Sequence record: PP359696.1
From: Escherichia phage Ge15
DNA length: 64,000 nucleotides
Direction: 5' to 3' (one strand)
The notes below the pieces were generated by a model. The model made no database searches and was not told the DNA's origin. It saw nothing but the letters and a program-made list of their open reading frames with translations. The position numbers and the translations under genes were made by a program. Positions 37,912-57,603 of the stretch are shown piece after piece (the first letter of the stretch is position 1; every line of letters begins with the position of its first letter).

Positions 37912-37984
37912 TGGGAATTAGCCAAGTTGGTAAGGCACTGGATTTTGATTCCAGGATGCAAAGGTTCGAGTCCTTTATTCCCAG
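37912..37984 (+). tRNA. tRNA-Gln (UUG)
   Basis: Cloverleaf by eye; anticodon loop ttTTGat; T-arm aaaggTTCGAGTccttt. Confidence 0.8.
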
Positions 37985-37985
37985 C

Positions 37986-38072
37986 GCGAGAATGGTCAAA
38001 TTGGTAAAGGCACAGCACTTAAAATGCTGCGGAATTATTTCCTTGTGGGTTCGAGTCCCACTTCTCGCACCA
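37986..38072 (+). tRNA. tRNA-Leu (UAA), long variable arm, CCA encoded
   Basis: Acceptor gcgagaa/ttctcgc; anticodon loop ctTAAaa. Confidence 0.8.
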
Positions 38073-38077
38073 AATTT

Positions 38078-38151
<74 letters not shown>

Positions 38152-38197
38152 ATTTATGACTCGTCGTGAGACGCTCAGTTCTTTATTAGGGACTGAT

Positions 38198-38806
38198 ATG
38201 CATTTTTATCTTTATAAAATAACAAATAAAATTAATAATAAAATTTATATTGGTGTGCATTCTACCGAAAATTTAGATGATGGATATATGGGTTCTGGTA
38301 AATTATTAAAAAGAGCCCAAGATAAATATGGTATAGAAAATTTTTCTAAAGAAATATTAGAGTATTTTGATGATAAAGAATCTATGCTTGAAGCCGAGAA
38401 AAATATTGTCACAGAAGAGTTTTTAAATAGACCAGATGTGTATAATTTAAAACTTGGAGGTGAAGGTGGATGGGACCATATAAATAATTATCCTATGACA
38501 GATCAGCAACGCGAATTAATTTCATTGGGTGTTAAAAAGGCACATTCTAACGGAAAATTAAAAGGATGGTCTTCAAATGGATTAATGAAGAATGGCTTTA
38601 CTGGTAAAACTCATTCTCAAGAAGCTAAACGTAAAATAGCAAAAGCAAACGAAGCAAAAGTTTCTGCGGATGAAAGAAAAAGAAGAATAGAAATTTCTAA
38701 ATTATATGATTTTTCTAAGCGTGGTGAATTATCTAAATATGCTAAGCATATTGGCGTAAGTCATACTCAAGCAAAAAGAATTCTAAATCAAATTAACAAT
38801 ATATAA
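38198..38806 (+). mobile_element. segB: GIY-YIG homing endonuclease (SegB-like) inside the tRNA array
   Basis: N-terminal FYLYKITNKINNKIYIGVHS GIY-YIG motif; basic C-terminal DNA-binding region; T4 segB sits in the tRNA region. Confidence 0.8.
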
Positions 38807-38812
38807 ATATTT

Positions 38813-38902
38813 GGAGGCGTGGCAGAGTGGTTTAATGCACCGGTCTTGAAAACCGGCAGTCGCTCCGGCGACTCATAGGTTCAAATCCTATCGCCTCCGC
38901 CA
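38813..38902 (+). tRNA. tRNA-Ser (UGA), long variable arm, CCA encoded
   Basis: Acceptor ggaggcg/cgcctcc; anticodon loop ctTGAaa. Confidence 0.8.
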
Positions 38903-38908
38903 GTTTTT

Positions 38909-38984
38909 GCTGATTTAGCTCAGTAGGTAGAGCAACTCACTTGTAATGAGAAGGTCGGCGGTTCGATTCCGTCAATCAGCACCA
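38909..38984 (+). tRNA. tRNA-Thr (UGU), CCA encoded
   Basis: Anticodon loop ctTGTaa; T-arm GGTTCGATTCC. Confidence 0.75.
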
Positions 38985-38985
38985 A

Positions 38986-39060
38986 GGCCCTGTAGCTGGA
39001 AGGTTCAAGCAAGCGACTCATAATCGCCAGATGGTGGTTCAATTCCACCCAGGGCCACCA
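38986..39060 (+). tRNA. tRNA-Ile/Met (CAU), CCA encoded
   Basis: Acceptor ggccctg/cagggcc; anticodon loop ctCATaa; T4 has a CAU tRNA read as Ile. Confidence 0.7.
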
Positions 39061-39066
39061 AATTAA

Positions 39067-39153
39067 GGGGAGTTATCCCGTAGAGGTAGCGGTGTGGACT
39101 GTAAATTCATTGTCATTGCGACTCGGGTGGTTCGACTCCACCACTCCCCACCA
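39067..39153 (+). tRNA. tRNA-Tyr (GUA), type II, CCA encoded
   Basis: Acceptor ggggagt/actcccc; anticodon stem with G-U pairs, loop ctGTAaa; long variable arm. Confidence 0.6.
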
Positions 39154-39157
39154 ATTT

Positions 39158-39232
39158 GGATGTGTAGCTCAATGGCAGAGCGATCGCCTGTTAAGCGATT
39201 GGTTATAGGTTCGAATCCTATCACGTCCGCCA
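39158..39232 (+). tRNA. tRNA-Asn (GUU), CCA encoded
   Basis: Anticodon arm atcgc-ctGTTaa-gcgat; T-arm GGTTCGAATCC. Confidence 0.75.
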
Positions 39233-39346
39233 AATTTGTGACAACTGTCACATTAATATCTACTTGACGCGATTATAGGGGTTGAACTGATCACTCTTCT
39301 CTTAATTTCGTGTGAAGACATCTTGATTGTTGGAGTAGGTATTAAT

Positions 39347-39422
39347 GTGGCCGTAGTTCAGTTGGTAGAACTCGAGATTGTGATTCTCGTAGTCATGGGT
39401 TCGACTCCCATCGGTCACCCCA
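39347..39422 (+). tRNA. tRNA-His (GUG), CCA encoded
   Basis: Anticodon arm cgaga-ttGTGat-tctcg; T-arm GGTTCGACTCC. Confidence 0.7.
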
Positions 39423-39426
39423 ATTA

Positions 39427-39502
39427 CGGGGCATAGCTCAGAAGGAAGAGCAAGGACCTTCTAAGTCCTAGGTCGTAGGTTCGATCCCTACTGCCTCGAC
39501 CA
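39427..39502 (+). tRNA. tRNA-Arg (UCU), CCA encoded
   Basis: Anticodon arm aggac-ctTCTaa-gtcct; T-arm GGTTCGATCCC. Confidence 0.8.
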
Positions 39503-52983: not shown

Positions 52984-53186
52984 TGATTAGTATCGAACAA
53001 GCGGATAAAATTAAGGAATTGGTAGCTTTAATTCGTAAAGCAGATGAGGAACTTAGTGACTTTGCTTGGTTTTCGTCAGGCATTGCAAATAAAAGTATTG
53101 AAGAACTTGAAGCTAAAGTTGATAATGCTTTAGAAGCGTTAGATATGTTTCTTGATGAAATTATCGATCATAATACGAGAGTTTAA
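52983..53186 (+). CDS. Small helical protein (tandem family member 1)
   Basis: Start trimmed to [13 protein letters not shown]. Confidence 0.45.
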   Translation: MISIEQADKIKELVALIRKADEELSDFAWFSSGIANKSIEELEAKVDNALEALDMFLDEIIDHNTRV

Positions 53187-53548: not shown

Positions 53549-53579
53549 GTTTACAAGTTGGCAAGGTTATGGTATAGTA
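53549..53579 (+). promoter_or_regulatory. T4-type early promoter
   Basis: gtttacaagttggcaaggttatggtatagta. Confidence 0.6.
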
Positions 53580-53710
53580 ATCTTGTCAACTGCCAAGGAG
53601 AAGAGAATGAAAGTTTTGTTTGTTGTGTATGTGGTGATTCAATATAATTACCCAATGTTTACTTATAATCTGGTGAACAACATTATTGATATGATTCAGA
53701 GGAGTATGTA

Positions 53711-54256
53711 ATGACGGTAGCGGCGAAACGATTAGTATTAGAAGTTAGTTCACTTTTTGGTGAATTGGCTATAGAAAAAGTAAATAATATGTATCGTTTG
53801 ACACAAGAAGACGATATGCTGTATTTTACGCCTAGTGAAATCATTCATTTAACCAAAATTGAAAATCCTTATACTGATAAAATTGTAAGCATTAATGATG
53901 AGCATAAAATTCATTTTTATTCTTCATGCCCAGGATTTAATATTGAAAGCGAGTCAATATGCTTATCAGTTATCCATTGGGATAGTTTTATAGATAAGAT
54001 TAAATATTTTTATTATTCTAATGAAAGAAAACATAGTTTAAAATGGTTTAAAAATTGCAATGCTATTATTACTAACGCTTGCAATCAGAATGATGAAACT
54101 GTTTTAAACGTATCAAAATGTTATGAAGATGGAGATGTCTTAACTATTCGTCAAATTGATGATTTTCGAGCACATATTGTCACATTTACCAAAGACGAAG
54201 CTATTGCACTAAAGACTTATCTTGATTCTGTCATTCCAACTATGATTTCAAAGTGA
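53711..54256 (+). CDS. Hypothetical protein (paralog pair member A)
   Basis: 181 aa; shares GFNIE and C-terminal A.LK.YL..V.P.M motifs with next ORF. Confidence 0.5.
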   Translation: MTVAAKRLVLEVSSLFGELAIEKVNNMYRLTQEDDMLYFTPSEIIHLTKIENPYTDKIVSINDEHKIHFYSSCPGFNIESESICLSVIHWDSFIDKIKYFYYSNERKHSLKWFKNCNAIITNACNQNDETVLNVSKCYEDGDVLTIRQIDDFRAHIVTFTKDEAIALKTYLDSVIPTMISK

Positions 54257-54262
54257 GGAAAT

Positions 54263-54784
54263 ATGTTTATTTCAAGTGAAAGTGGTTTAATTCGTGTTGA
54301 ATTTAAAAATGACATCTTTCTTATTCAAGGAGATGATATTATTAAAATGAGTTATGACGAAATCAAGAAAATTTGTCATGCTCTTGAAAGTCATGGAAAA
54401 GTGAACGCTGTTATTGATATTGGCGATTTATGGGTGACACTTTATGAAGTATCCGAAGGATTTAACATTGAAGATGAAAATAACATTTTAGCTATTGATA
54501 AAAGAACTGATTTGCTTGATGTGTTAAAAGTTTATGAACAGTCAAACGGTGGAAGAAAAGCTGTATTGATTTATCAAAAACCGCATTCATGTGGAACTGC
54601 TTCAATCATTTCAAATATTGAAGGCGAAGTTGATACTTATATGTGTGTTTTAAAAGCTGGTGGTGACCGTCATCCGGATTTTATTTCTATTCGTCAAAAC
54701 AATGGAGAAATTTCATTATCAAAATCAGAAGCTGAAGCTATGATTAAGTATTTAACAACCGTTACGCCTTCAATGAAAGGATAA
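54263..54784 (+). CDS. Hypothetical protein (paralog pair member B)
   Basis: 173 aa; see member A. Confidence 0.5.
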   Translation: MFISSESGLIRVEFKNDIFLIQGDDIIKMSYDEIKKICHALESHGKVNAVIDIGDLWVTLYEVSEGFNIEDENNILAIDKRTDLLDVLKVYEQSNGGRKAVLIYQKPHSCGTASIISNIEGEVDTYMCVLKAGGDRHPDFISIRQNNGEISLSKSEAEAMIKYLTTVTPSMKG

Positions 54785-54786
54785 TT

Positions 54787-55248
54787 ATGATTATTAATGA
54801 AAACTCTTGGCACTATAAATTATTCAAATTGTTTAACGATGAATGGCAACGACCTAAGACATTATGCGCATATTTTTGGTCTATTGCCATTCCTACATTT
54901 TTCGTTTCTATTTTTGGATGTGTTATACTCGTAGGGCTAACAATTATTTGTGCAGAAAGCCTACAACGTTGGCTTATTTTCGGTAGTTTATGGACTCTTC
55001 TTCCATCGGCATTTATACTTGCACTTTTGGTTGTTTTACTTATTATCGGTTCATTTGTTATTCCTGCACATTTGCGTGAAAAATATAAAGATTATAAATG
55101 GAAAAAGGATTATGCTTTACACGTAGAAAATATTGATAGGGCGTATAAAGGTTTACCTCCTATTCAACCCAAGAAATCGGTTATCGTTGAATTTTTAAAA
55201 GCTCGTAAAGCTAAAGTATGTCCTGTTATTGAATATAAGGCTGAATGA
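54787..55248 (+). CDS. Multi-TM membrane protein
   Basis: 153 aa with 3-4 hydrophobic helices; stop overlaps the NTase start. Confidence 0.5.
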   Translation: MIINENSWHYKLFKLFNDEWQRPKTLCAYFWSIAIPTFFVSIFGCVILVGLTIICAESLQRWLIFGSLWTLLPSAFILALLVVLLIIGSFVIPAHLREKYKDYKWKKDYALHVENIDRAYKGLPPIQPKKSVIVEFLKARKAKVCPVIEYKAE

Positions 55249-56258
55249 TGAAAACAGTAATGAAAAGCTATTTTGGTAGTCATCTTTATGGAACTTCTAC
55301 CCCAGAATCTGATGTAGATTTTAAAGAAATCTTTGTTCCTCCTGCTCGTGATATTCTTATCGGAAATGTTAAAGAGCATATGAGTAAAAATACCAACAAC
55401 ACATCATCTAAAAACACTAAAGATGATATTGACCACGAATTGTATAGTCTTAAGTATTTCTTTAAATTAGCAGCAGATGGTGAAACTGTAGCATTAGATA
55501 TGCTTCACACTCCACCTGAACTAGTGGTTAAATCTGATTTGCCTGATGTGTGGAAGTTTATTCAAGACAACCGTTCTCGTTTTTATACGACTAACATGAA
55601 ATCCTATTTAGGATATGTCCGCAAGCAAGCTTCTAAATACGGTGTCAAGGGTTCTCGTTTGGCTGCATTACGCGATGTATTGAAAGTAGTTAATCAAATC
55701 CCTGAGCAATGGGTTGATTACCAAGAAGACGGTTCCATTAAGCAGCGTCGTACTAAAGTTGAAGATATTAAGCATCGTCTTCCAGAAAACGAATTCTGTG
55801 AATGGGTGTTCCATAATCATGAGAAAACAGGTCCACAAACGTTCTATACAGTGCTGGGTCGTAAATATCAGACAACGCTTTCTCTTATTGAGCTTAAGCA
55901 GTCACTGAACAAATTAGATGCTGAATATGGTGAACGTGCTCGTAAAGCCGAAGCTAATGAAGGTATTGATTGGAAAGCACTAAGTCATGCTTGTCGTGGT
56001 GGACTTCAACTATTGGAAATTTACAAAACTGGCGACTTGATTTATCCACTCCAAGATGCTCCATTTATTCTCGACGTGAAGTTGGGTAAACATCCATTTA
56101 AAACAGTTCAAGAGTTTTTGGAAGATGTGGTCGATCAAGTAGAAGCAGCATCTACTGAAGCTTCTAAGAACGGTATGCAGCAAAAAGTAGACATGGGTTT
56201 CTGGGATGACTTCCTTGAGAAGGTCTATCTTGAAAACCACCGAAGTTATTATAAATGA
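55245..56258 (+). CDS. Predicted nucleotidyltransferase (Pol-beta superfamily signature)
   Basis: N-terminal GSHLYGTSTPESDVDF fits hG[GS]x9-13Dh[DE]h; 337 aa with helical C-terminal region. Confidence 0.55.
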   Translation: MMKTVMKSYFGSHLYGTSTPESDVDFKEIFVPPARDILIGNVKEHMSKNTNNTSSKNTKDDIDHELYSLKYFFKLAADGETVALDMLHTPPELVVKSDLPDVWKFIQDNRSRFYTTNMKSYLGYVRKQASKYGVKGSRLAALRDVLKVVNQIPEQWVDYQEDGSIKQRRTKVEDIKHRLPENEFCEWVFHNHEKTGPQTFYTVLGRKYQTTLSLIELKQSLNKLDAEYGERARKAEANEGIDWKALSHACRGGLQLLEIYKTGDLIYPLQDAPFILDVKLGKHPFKTVQEFLEDVVDQVEAASTEASKNGMQQKVDMGFWDDFLEKVYLENHRSYYK

Positions 56259-56260
56259 TA

Positions 56261-56286
56261 GGGAGCCTTCGGGCTCCCTTTTTTAT
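56261..56286 (+). terminator. Rho-independent terminator GGGAGCC-TTCG-GGCTCCC plus T-run
   Basis: Perfect UUCG hairpin followed by TTTTTTATTT. Confidence 0.8.
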
Positions 56287-56308
56287 TTCAAAAATTTTTC
56301 ACAAAGTT

Positions 56309-56347
56309 GTTTACAAGCATAAAGCTTTATGGTACTATACAACTATC
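56309..56347 (+). promoter_or_regulatory. T4-type early promoter (GTTTAC ... GGTACTATACAACTATC)
   Basis: Third copy of the identical -10 cassette. Confidence 0.7.
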
Positions 56348-56376
56348 AAAACAAATGAGTAAATTGGAGATACAAA

Positions 56377-56577
56377 ATGACTACTTTGAATAAACGTTTC
56401 GGTAAAGCTAAATCTGGGTGTGCAGCTGAACGTCGTTATGTTTTCGCTCAGTTAGAAGATGTAGAGTATCAGATTAATCAAGTTCACATTACTGGTATCG
56501 AGCCTATGTGTGGCCTTGAAGCTCTTCGTGAAGTTCGTGACGGGTATCGTCGTGACATCGAAGAAATGTCAAAATAA
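56377..56577 (+). CDS. Hypothetical small protein
   Basis: 66-aa ORF with own promoter. Confidence 0.45.
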   Translation: MTTLNKRFGKAKSGCAAERRYVFAQLEDVEYQINQVHITGIEPMCGLEALREVRDGYRRDIEEMSK

Positions 56578-56616
56578 GTATACAAACTGATAGGACTATG
56601 TTATAGTAGTCCTATC
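56578..56616 (+). promoter_or_regulatory. T4-type early promoter variant (GTATAC) with inverted repeat GATAGGACTA / TAGTCCTATC
   Basis: gtatacaaactgataggactatgttatagtagtcctatc. Confidence 0.6.
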
Positions 56617-56634
56617 AAATCAAAGGAGAATAAA

Positions 56635-57603
56635 ATGAAAACTGTAACTATCAATAAGGGTATCTACTTTGGCAAAGAAATCTCTGGAACTTTTGAGCTC
56701 TTAGGCGAATGGTTCCCAGATAATGCTCCGGTAGATGCACAAGGAGATGGTAAAGTTTTTGTTGAAATTGACGGTAAACGTCGCGGTGTTTGGGTTTACA
56801 AATCAGATATTTCATATGATGGTGTAAAAGTTGAAGAAGTTAAAGAATCGTATGAAGATATGAAAACCCGCATTAATAAAAGATTTAATGTTATGGGAAT
56901 GATGACGAATGGTATTATTAATGGAAATATTCGTTCATTAATTATCTCTGGCGCAGCAGGTATTGGTAAAACGTATTCTTTAGATAAAGCTTTAAATAAA
57001 GCAAATGATATTGGATACATTGAATATAAAAGCATTAATGGTAAAATCTCTGGTATCGGTCTTTATGAACAGCTTTGGAATAATCGTGAAGAGAATTCTG
57101 TCCTTTTGATTGATGATGTGGATGTTTTCTCTGATATGGACATTCTTAATCTTCTGAAAGCTGCTCTGGACACCGGAGAGACCCGCAAAGTCTGCTGGAG
57201 CACTGCATCTTCTTACTTAGAAGAAAAAGGCATTGAGCGTGAGTTTGAATTTAAAGGAACGATTGTTTTTATCACAAACGTTGACATTGACCGCGAATTA
57301 GACCGTGGTACTAAACTTGCTCCACATTTACAAGCATTAGTTTCCCGCTCGGTTTATTTAGATTTGGGTGTTCACACTAATGAAGAAATTATGGTCAGGG
57401 TTGAAGATGTTATTCTTTCAACTGACATGATGCAAAAACGCGGTCTTTCTGATGAAGAAACTTATAAAGCATTATCATGGATGAAAGTCAATGTTAATCG
57501 TTTACGCAATGTTTCACTGCGTACTGCACTTTATCTTGCTGACTTTATTATGACCGACAAAAACGGTTGGGAAGAAATCGCTGAGGTTACTCTTCTGAAA
57601 TAA
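56635..57603 (+). CDS. AAA+-type ATPase with N-terminal extra domain
   Basis: Walker A GAAGIGKT, Walker B VLLIDDVD, sensor-1-like VFITN; 322 aa. Confidence 0.6.
   Translation: MKTVTINKGIYFGKEISGTFELLGEWFPDNAPVDAQGDGKVFVEIDGKRRGVWVYKSDISYDGVKVEEVKESYEDMKTRINKRFNVMGMMTNGIINGNIRSLIISGAAGIGKTYSLDKALNKANDIGYIEYKSINGKISGIGLYEQLWNNREENSVLLIDDVDVFSDMDILNLLKAALDTGETRKVCWSTASSYLEEKGIEREFEFKGTIVFITNVDIDRELDRGTKLAPHLQALVSRSVYLDLGVHTNEEIMVRVEDVILSTDMMQKRGLSDEETYKALSWMKVNVNRLRNVSLRTALYLADFIMTDKNGWEEIAEVTLLK

Follow-up and report, generated by a model that had tools for sequence, protein, structure and literature searches.

The stretch of Escherichia phage Ge15 analysed here (record PP359696.1, 64,000 nucleotides, hereafter the window) encodes at 55245-56258 a protein of 337 amino acids (aa) that, judged by its sequence, is the Tequatrovirus ortholog of T4 NrdC.11 and a member of a divergent, longer subfamily of the RlaP (PF10127) nucleotidyltransferases (NTases) of the DNA polymerase beta (Pol-beta) type. 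We consider it probable that NrdC.11 is a template-independent RNA 3'-end nucleotidyltransferase, which would act in phage RNA repair between the Pnkp and Rnl1 steps. The 153-aa membrane protein encoded directly upstream is a syntenic neighbour and not an obligate partner, the two genes sharing gene order only. The identity of the NTase was already known. Its match to the COG3541 nucleotidyltransferases was reported in 2006 (PMC1524935), PF10127 was named RlaP in 2016 after its association with RNA ligases (Burroughs and Aravind, as cited in PMC7824862), the gene being assigned to this RNA-repair family in that year, and a 2025 preprint (10.64898/2025.12.29.696909) lists T4 NrdC.11 among the RlaPs as a protein 'of unknown function' and puts it in a separate cluster (cluster 5) of the similarity network.

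An RlaP-family nucleotidyltransferase

The window protein and T4 NrdC.11 are 98% identical over their full length, which answers a question left open by the initial annotation of this DNA, namely whether T4 has a homolog. The assignment to RlaP ('RNA repair pathway DNA polymerase beta family') comes from a PF10127 match of 44.3 bits (cut-off 23, E=2.3e-11), in which NTase residues 7-135 align with positions 23-142 of the 249-position profile. RlaP is also the sole family matched by 57 of 58 diverse homologs. The protein also matches phrog_388 'nucleotidyltransferase' (E=2e-136). An exhaustive HMMER search retrieved 3414 clusters (50% identity) at E<=1e-3 and 826 at E<=1e-30, and the best 150 matches are mostly full-length (310-350 aa, 36-58% identity). 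Among phages, the NTase is found in Tequatrovirus, Mosigvirus, Straboviridae of Klebsiella, Enterobacter, Acinetobacter, Aeromonas and Vibrio, Barbavirus and jumbo phages. The features of the gene and its product are as follows.

55245..56258, + strand: NrdC.11 ortholog, RlaP-family (PF10127) Pol-beta nucleotidyltransferase, 337 aa (336 if the start is 55248), called from T4 identity, PF10127, phrog_388 and AlphaFold
55275..55319, + strand: predicted catalytic motif G11-S12...D23-V24-D25 (nucleotide-binding turn and two metal-binding aspartates), from conservation and the model
55431..55433, + strand: D63, probable third catalytic carboxylate, at the start of strand 62-68
55707..55871, + strand: beta-rich insert, residues ~155-209, specific to the NrdC.11-type subfamily, from DSSP of the AlphaFold model

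The G-S-x10-D-V-D signature that had first suggested an NTase is indeed present as G11-S12-x10-D23-V24-D25. In an alignment of 58 sequences with 34-54% identity to the window protein, the invariant residues are G11, S12, G16, S22, D23, D25, N57, D63, Y132, K244, H248, R251, P268 and K279, and all are retained in 11 further homologs, where position 63 is D or E. The third catalytic acid, which the initial annotation had proposed to look for, is probably D63. This residue is D in 58/58 sequences, lies 38 residues past D25 within an I-D-H stretch that fits the hydrophobic-acid-hydrophobic pattern, and its role is suggested by the topology of the modelled fold. The window protein would thus possess the complete Pol-beta catalytic set, as read from sequence and model: the hG[GS] turn, the DxD pair and a third carboxylate on a neighbouring strand.

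Structure prediction agrees with this assignment. An AlphaFold model built from the 58-sequence alignment is confident (predicted local distance difference test, pLDDT, 94.3; predicted template-modelling score, pTM, 0.82) and displays an alpha/beta NTase domain (residues 1-113), with G11-S12 at the turn between beta1 and the following helix and D23/D25 at the start of beta2. Beyond residue 113, it continues with a long helix (119-150), the beta-rich insert (155-209) and a helical bundle (214-336) that finishes with a terminal helix (317-336). The family match, the motif and the model together uphold the initial view of a Pol-beta-superfamily NTase with a helical C-terminal region. In the crystal structure of PfRlaP, a C-terminal helical domain and the NTase domain form a cleft, and the last helix packs on the NTase domain. 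The C-terminal 219 residues of the window protein, beta insert included, have no meaningful Pfam match and none to the C-terminal half of RlaP. This unmatched half, taken together with the structure, is the reason for regarding NrdC.11 as a divergent and longer RlaP subfamily.

Searches of the PDB by sequence, with the single protein or the 58-sequence profile, returned no related solved structure in a set that does not include the PfRlaP structure. PADLOC and NCBIfam gave no match for the NTase, the membrane protein, NrdC.10 or the y05I paralog. With the NTase model, Foldseek found no more than weak, generic NTase matches in the PDB. In BFVD, many models called 'nucleotidyltransferase' were returned, from phages, giant viruses and baculoviruses, among them baculovirus HE65. 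These generic likenesses bear on one function that had been envisaged for the protein, that of a small-molecule nucleotidylase like ANT/KNTase or LinB, or of an MNT-type, antitoxin-like protein modifier. What speaks for it is a shared 'NTase plus helical bundle' layout. No ANT or MNT family match was obtained, TM-scores reach only 0.25-0.37, the protein is 337 aa long with a beta insert, its homologs in other phages have RNA-repair neighbours, and bacterial RlaPs do not modify proteins. We hold such an activity to be extremely improbable.

Annotation errors have spread around these genes in GenBank/RefSeq. In many phage records nrdC.10 and nrdC.11 are labelled 'thioredoxin', one NrdC.11 is a 'putative HNH homing endonuclease', and y05I/MobD.1 proteins are mislabelled 'molybdopterin-guanine dinucleotide biosynthesis protein MobD'.

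Gene contexts and a probable role in RNA repair

The gene contexts of NrdC.11-type homologs point to RNA repair. We examined the contigs of eleven full-length homologs from unrelated phages (35-40% identical over residues 2-328, E 1e-66 to 1e-82), which gave ten distinct contexts.

L082: Pnkp (HAD_PNKP + AAA_33), a 99-aa open reading frame (ORF), RlaP and RNA_lig_T4_1 (T4-type Rnl1), all overlapping
L083: RlaP then Pnkp, overlapping, with an RNA_ligase (PF09414) 4.5 kb downstream
L086: RNA_ligase, HD_4 and RlaP, overlapping
L087: RtcB 2 kb upstream, then RlaP, HD_4 and a metallophosphatase
L080 (6001-7559) and L085: RlaP then HD_4
L084: HD_4 then RlaP
L081: RlaP, an 86-aa ORF, HD_4
L079 (6001-7530): a single polypeptide with RlaP (1-330) and HD_4 (334-468)
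L076-L078: neighbours without a Pfam match

The partners of the NTase in these cassettes are thus T4-type Pnkp, ligases of the Rnl1 or Rnl2 type, RtcB and HD_4 phosphohydrolases. The logic of the cassettes is coherent, since the NTase needs a 3'-OH that Pnkp or an HD phosphatase supplies, and 5'-P/3'-OH ligases seal. HD_4, an HD domain of the RelA/SpoT-hydrolase type, is the commonest neighbour or fusion partner (7 of the 10 distinct non-T4 contexts), and RlaP::HD_4 fusions account for 12 of 120 among the matches listed. This association suggests a two-step module in which a 3' end is cleaned and then extended. Besides, Rheinheimera phage Barba31A and Aeromonas phage AS-szw encode a CCA-adding enzyme near the NTase, at a distance of two genes in the former and of ~4 kb in the latter.

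The biochemistry of the family is known from two bacterial enzymes. The RlaPs of P. fluorescens and P. aeruginosa, for which alone such activity was demonstrated, attach one or two nucleoside monophosphates (NMPs), or their deoxy forms (dNMPs), to RNA 3'-OH ends (10.64898/2025.12.29.696909). They prefer Mn2+ and leave DNA, protein and RNA with a 3' phosphate untouched; in nicked tRNA, their favoured site is the 3' end of the 5' half. In the same preprint, RlaP partly restores the aminoacylation of a tRNA that misses a nucleotide and is proposed as an antidote to nucleotide-excising ribotoxins such as RloC. Burroughs and Aravind, as cited in PMC7824862, had predicted that RlaP restores nucleotides lost at RNA ends before ligation, for instance after RloC, and PMC7824862 itself also predicts that phage RlaPs answer nucleotide-excising ribotoxins of this kind.

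Combined with the RlaP match, the conserved catalytic residues and the Pnkp, RNA-ligase and HD cassettes of the homologs, these elements favour one of the functions listed in the initial annotation, an RNA or tRNA 3'-end modifier. Host anticodon nucleases (RloC or related ribotoxins) would cut a tRNA and trim a nucleotide, and phage Pnkp would turn the broken end into a 3'-OH. NrdC.11, probably expressed early as the last gene of a five-gene unit, would then add back one or two NMPs by means of a two-metal site formed by G11-S12, D23-D25 and D63, and Rnl1 would seal the break. What the analysis demonstrates is the orthology, the family match, the fold, the conservation of the catalytic residues, the repair cassettes around homologs and the separability of the membrane gene; the substrate, the number of nucleotides added, the order of the steps and the host toxin that is countered are inferred in this scheme.

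Several points weigh against this scheme. As only residues 7-135 align with the RlaP model and the C-terminal 200 residues match nothing by sequence, transferring function from bacterial enzymes of ~250 aa is an extrapolation. The RNA-ligase/end-healing neighbourhood seen at full-length homologs is absent at nrdC.11 in the window and in T4-like genomes, and in T4-like phages the gene is not adjacent to pseT or rnlA. The closest complete relative encodes a polynucleotide kinase and Rnl1 ('RNA ligase and tail fiber attachment catalyst') ~80 kb away, and the repair toolkit is therefore present in the genome in a dispersed form. In T4, the block from nrdC.11 to mobD.3 is dispensable in the laboratory (PMC9825161), which fits an accessory role, with no phenotype given. 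Finally, the HD_4 and CCA-enzyme neighbours could point to repair of the acceptor end rather than of the anticodon loop.

This last point leads to the main rival explanation, in which NrdC.11 repairs the 3'-CCA acceptor end of tRNA after cleaning by a phosphohydrolase, for example upon damage by toxins that target this end. The frequency of HD_4 at NrdC.11-type homologs and the CCA-adding enzymes of Barba31A and AS-szw are in its favour. Small alarmone hydrolases of the HD_4 family can strip the 3'-pyrophosphate that toxSAS/CapRel-type toxins place on tRNA, which counts on the same side. However, Pnkp and 5'-P/3'-OH ligases (Rnl1, PF09414) also occur in these cassettes, which implies the sealing of an internal break, T4-like phages have no adjacent HD_4 gene, and for bacterial RlaP the acceptor end was a less preferred site than the 3' end of the 5' tRNA half (10.64898/2025.12.29.696909). 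We therefore regard acceptor-end repair as unlikely, while it is the alternative that we take most seriously. A second one, tailing of host or phage RNAs for decay or regulation during early host takeover in the manner of a poly(A) or poly(U) polymerase, appears quite improbable. The early-type promoter of the unit would suit it, as would the labelling of RNAs of rRNA and tRNA size that bacterial RlaP achieved with each of the four nucleoside triphosphates (10.64898/2025.12.29.696909). Nevertheless, the characterised RlaPs stop at one or two nucleotides according to the same preprint, the contexts of the homologs are repair cassettes and not decay machinery, and no match to a poly(A)-polymerase family was found. 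Repair of nucleotide-depleted tRNA breaks remains the reading we favour, and the Pnkp-RlaP-Rnl1 cassettes and HD_4 fusions make a test of NrdC.11 in tRNA repair well motivated. In view of these contexts, annotation pipelines should also drop the 'thioredoxin' label for nrdC.10 and nrdC.11.

The membrane protein neighbour and a putative early transcription unit

The NTase gene is preceded by an ORF for a membrane protein (54787-55248, 153 aa), both on the + strand. Both genes are real: 1517 of 50,697 phage records encode the NTase, and 854 phage records encode the membrane protein. At their junction, gctgaATGAtg (gctgaATGAtgaaa), the stop of the 153-aa ORF and the first ATG of the NTase share four bases, precisely the ATGA overlap noticed initially. 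The second ATG (55248) is the start annotated in T4 and in RefSeq entries of close relatives; it gives 336 aa, a one-base overlap and a spacing of 7 nt to the AAGG Shine-Dalgarno core versus 4 nt for the first ATG.

The initial annotation saw in this overlap a translationally coupled NTase with its membrane partner, an interpretation that comparison with other genomes does not support. In T4, window positions 54282-55243, which hold the second y05I paralog and the membrane gene, are replaced by ~808 bp with the HNH homing endonuclease gene mobD (NC_000866 56450-57257; 4551-5358 in locus L003), and the NTase is untouched. We compared 31 IMG/VR loci anchored on the NTase and 36 anchored on the membrane protein. 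The membrane gene lies directly upstream of the NTase with the 4-nt overlap at 13 of the 31 NTase loci; at 12 others, one to three soluble ORFs or an HNH gene separate the two, and the membrane gene is 0.4-1.7 kb upstream; it is absent from five, and one locus is not assessable. Where ORFs are callable in the twelve loci with intervening ORFs, the gene that abuts the NTase overlaps its start, mostly by the same 4 nt. Conversely, no NTase is found within 3.5 kb at seven or eight of the 36 membrane loci (L067 has too little downstream sequence). In the Aeromonas Ceceduovirus, the two genes are apparently ~50 kb apart, assuming that the sister isolates AS-zj (membrane gene at 144.6 kb) and AS-szw (NTase at 194.9 kb) are collinear. 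The overlap itself is generic gene packing shared among unrelated genes: in the 12 kb around the pair of phage KAW1E185, 7 of 27 junctions are 4-nt overlaps, including those of vs, tk.4, tk.x, rI and rI.-1. The order membrane gene ... nrdC.11 ... nrdC.10 reaches Acinetobacter phages, and since the rest of the early region extends to them as well, we read this order as family-wide collinearity. A functional partnership of the membrane protein was thus rejected on synteny, given T4 and locus L006 without the gene, the genes that intervene in many genera and the Ceceduovirus separation.

Two loci illustrate how this flank changes. At locus L010, a 254-aa ORF, HNH/mobD-like by its N-terminal sequence only, is inserted between the membrane gene and nrdC.11 without deletion, and at locus L006 the whole block from mobD.2 to the membrane gene is lost. 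The nrdC.11 flank looks like a hotspot of homing-endonuclease turnover.

A functional module of the two proteins had been another possibility, by analogy with cyclic oligonucleotide-based antiphage signalling systems (CBASS) or with Hailong. The NTase, or a nucleotide or oligonucleotide that it makes, would control the membrane protein with its two transmembrane (TM) helices or be anchored by it; in one version, a phage decoy would provide, or imitate, the oligonucleotide that keeps a host HalA-type channel closed. T4 would have lost the membrane half through mobD. A match to HalB and the membrane neighbour are the sole thread leading to this module. It is very unlikely, because the genes are separable and the NTase belongs to RlaP by sequence. 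The CBASS-like signal synthase considered at the outset finds no echo either: PADLOC, Pfam and NCBIfam gave no match of that kind, the fold search none to a CD-NTase or SMODS, and the neighbour protein has no sensor domain.

The membrane protein itself belongs to a phage-only family (23 clusters in a word-indexed search) for which no related solved chain was found. Instead of the three or four TM helices first predicted, it has two long hydrophobic stretches (~27-56 and ~62-94) separated by ESLQR and a basic tail with a net charge of +7. An AlphaFold model from a shallow alignment (pLDDT 62, usable for helix boundaries only) has two helices, 26-65 and 68-120. On these two grounds, the likeliest topology is a 2-TM hairpin with both ends cytoplasmic. 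Residues M1, I3, S7, W8, H9, L26, C27, Y29, K143 and C145 are invariant in 11 divergent homologs. Conservation is concentrated at the cytoplasmic ends: the N-terminal SWH (7-9) and LCxYFW (26-31) and the C-terminal KxKxCP (143-146) motifs are invariant from E. coli to Klebsiella phages and largely kept in Acinetobacter phage AM101, and the transmembrane core is free to vary. With one His and two Cys, these motifs might hold a metal or redox site. Sequence comparison indicates that the membrane protein evolves faster than the NTase, with 24-50% identity where the NTase has 64-85%.

The 4.2 kb spanning the pair are 96-98% identical to many Tequatrovirus genomes, with phage vB_EcoM_KAW1E185 as top match, and the window + strand corresponds to the T4 minus strand. 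The gene order tk, rI.1, rI, rI.-1, mobD.5...mobD.1, nrdC.11, nrdC.10 ... nrdC places the pair in the tk-to-nrdC interval, as initially stated. Besides the NTase gene, the unit that contains the pair has the following features.

53550..53578, + strand: predicted T4 early-type promoter (GTTTACA, 17 nt, TG-extended TATAGT) heading the unit, called by consensus match only
53607..53711, + strand: MobD.2-like ORF, 34 aa, first gene of the unit, with AAGGAG 5' of ATG 53607 and the length and position of T4 mobD.2
53711..54256, + strand: y05I paralog A, 181 aa, ortholog of T4 MobD.1 (82% identity; Pfam T4_y05I_N E=5e-38, T4_y05I_C E=9e-21)
54263..54784, + strand: y05I paralog B, 173 aa, not in T4 (Pfam T4_y05I_N and T4_y05I_C)
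54787..55248, + strand: small inner-membrane protein, 153 aa, phrog_944 'membrane protein' (E=8e-50), sub-threshold in Pfam
56260..56287, + strand: intrinsic terminator ending the unit, AGGGAGCC-TTCG-GGCTCCCT followed by a T run

Taken in order from 53550 to 56287, these features would form a single unit composed of an early promoter, mobD.2, two y05I paralogs, the membrane protein gene, nrdC.11 and a terminator. The promoter is the best match of the region (10 of 12 positions, with the TG). A search for MotA-type and late promoters inside the unit found none upstream of the pair, the sole MotA-like site being at 53124. The strong terminator that had been noted after the pair is present at 56260-56279, with a stem of 8 bp (6 G-C pairs), a TTCG loop and a T6 run, and the annotation of phage KAW1E185 carries the same one (-18.4). 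The two ORFs upstream of the membrane gene are tandem paralogs, as had been proposed, since both match T4_y05I_N and T4_y05I_C; paralog B falls within the segment that mobD replaces in T4. Pfam labels these domains 'putative transcription factor'. More distant genera have a single y05I copy, 25-47% identical to paralog A, and only paralog A has a T4 ortholog.

Past the terminator, a second predicted early-type promoter (GTTTACA, 17 nt, TG-TACTAT, 56310-56338) would drive a 66-aa ORF (56377-56577; phrog_6200, no Pfam match) that T4 does not have, window positions 56350-56624 being without a T4 counterpart. Directly upstream of the nrdC.10 start lies an inverted repeat of 12 bp (TTGATAGGACTA...TAGTCCTATCAG, 56587-56618), flagged in the scan only as a minus-strand terminator-like site. 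The NrdC.10 ortholog (56635-57603, 322 aa) has sub-threshold matches to P-loop/AAA/STAND families (AAA_14 E=6e-5, nSTAND3 E=5e-4), is 70-80% conserved, and follows nrdC.11 in almost every Tevenvirinae-like locus as well as in Acinetobacter phage AM101. Ten tRNA genes stand at 37912-39502, ~16 kb from nrdC.11, one cluster being made up of Gln, Leu and Gly and the next of Ser, Thr, Met, Tyr, Asn, His and Arg; T4 has eight.

Comparison with known systems

Among the NTases that recall the window protein, the MNTs of HEPN-MNT pairs are much smaller (~100-150 aa) than this multi-domain protein, which has no adjacent HEPN gene and a PF01909 score of 13.6 bits, below the cut-off of 21. Kanamycin nucleotidyltransferase/ANT(4') and the JCSG NTase-like structure 3c18 share with it a minimal NTase domain followed by a helical bundle (HEPN/KNTase_C-like). 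Hailong HalB (PDB 9dbh) is 16% identical to the window NTase, has 217 aa and belongs to a different sequence family. HalB makes a tyrosine-primed oligodeoxyadenylate that gates HalA, whereas the membrane protein of the window is small, dispensable and unrelated to solved chains; far from being obligately paired as HalA is, its gene is missing in T4 and L006, and several lineages have it without linkage to the NTase. Class II CCA-adding enzymes (NTase plus HD) are also Pol-beta NTases that act on tRNA 3' ends, and recall the RlaP::HD_4 fusions and adjacencies. However, the window NTase has no PF01743 or PolyA_pol match and no HD domain, the HD family at its homologs (HD_4) is a different one, and HD_4 is downstream or C-terminal in L079, L080, L081, L085 and L087 and upstream in L084 and L086.

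The bacterial RlaPs of P. fluorescens and P. aeruginosa are encoded in rtcB-rlaP-rtcA operons (10.64898/2025.12.29.696909). They share the Pfam family, the set of G-S, DxD and third acid, as far as the model of the window protein shows the succession of an N-terminal NTase and a C-terminal helical domain, and an association with RNA-ligase and end-healing genes that is seen at NrdC.11-type homologs in other phages. The window NTase differs in being ~90 residues longer, with the beta-rich insert at 155-209 and a C-terminal half that cannot be aligned by sequence, in its placement in the separate cluster 5, and in having no adjacent ligase in T4-like genomes.

The nearest system is T4 NrdC.11 itself (NP_049709; 'uncharacterized 38.9 kDa protein in nrdC-mobD intergenic region' in UniProt, 'nucleotidyltransferase' in RefSeq), whose gene lies like that of the window between the mobD.1 block and nrdC.10 on the same strand. 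T4 differs by mobD upstream of nrdC.11 instead of y05I-B and the membrane gene, and by the absence of the 66-aa ORF after the terminator. As a discovery, the gene carries little weight, and earlier papers have already asked what NrdC.11 does during infection. Should NrdC.11 put back the nucleotides that RloC-type anticodon nucleases excise, the classic T4 tRNA-repair pathway of Pnkp and Rnl1 would be complete, and it would become clear how T-even phages respond to a host counter-measure that was described more than ten years ago. To conclude, the feature analysed here is the known T4 gene for NrdC.11 (RlaP), set in a T2-like arrangement that mobD has displaced in T4.

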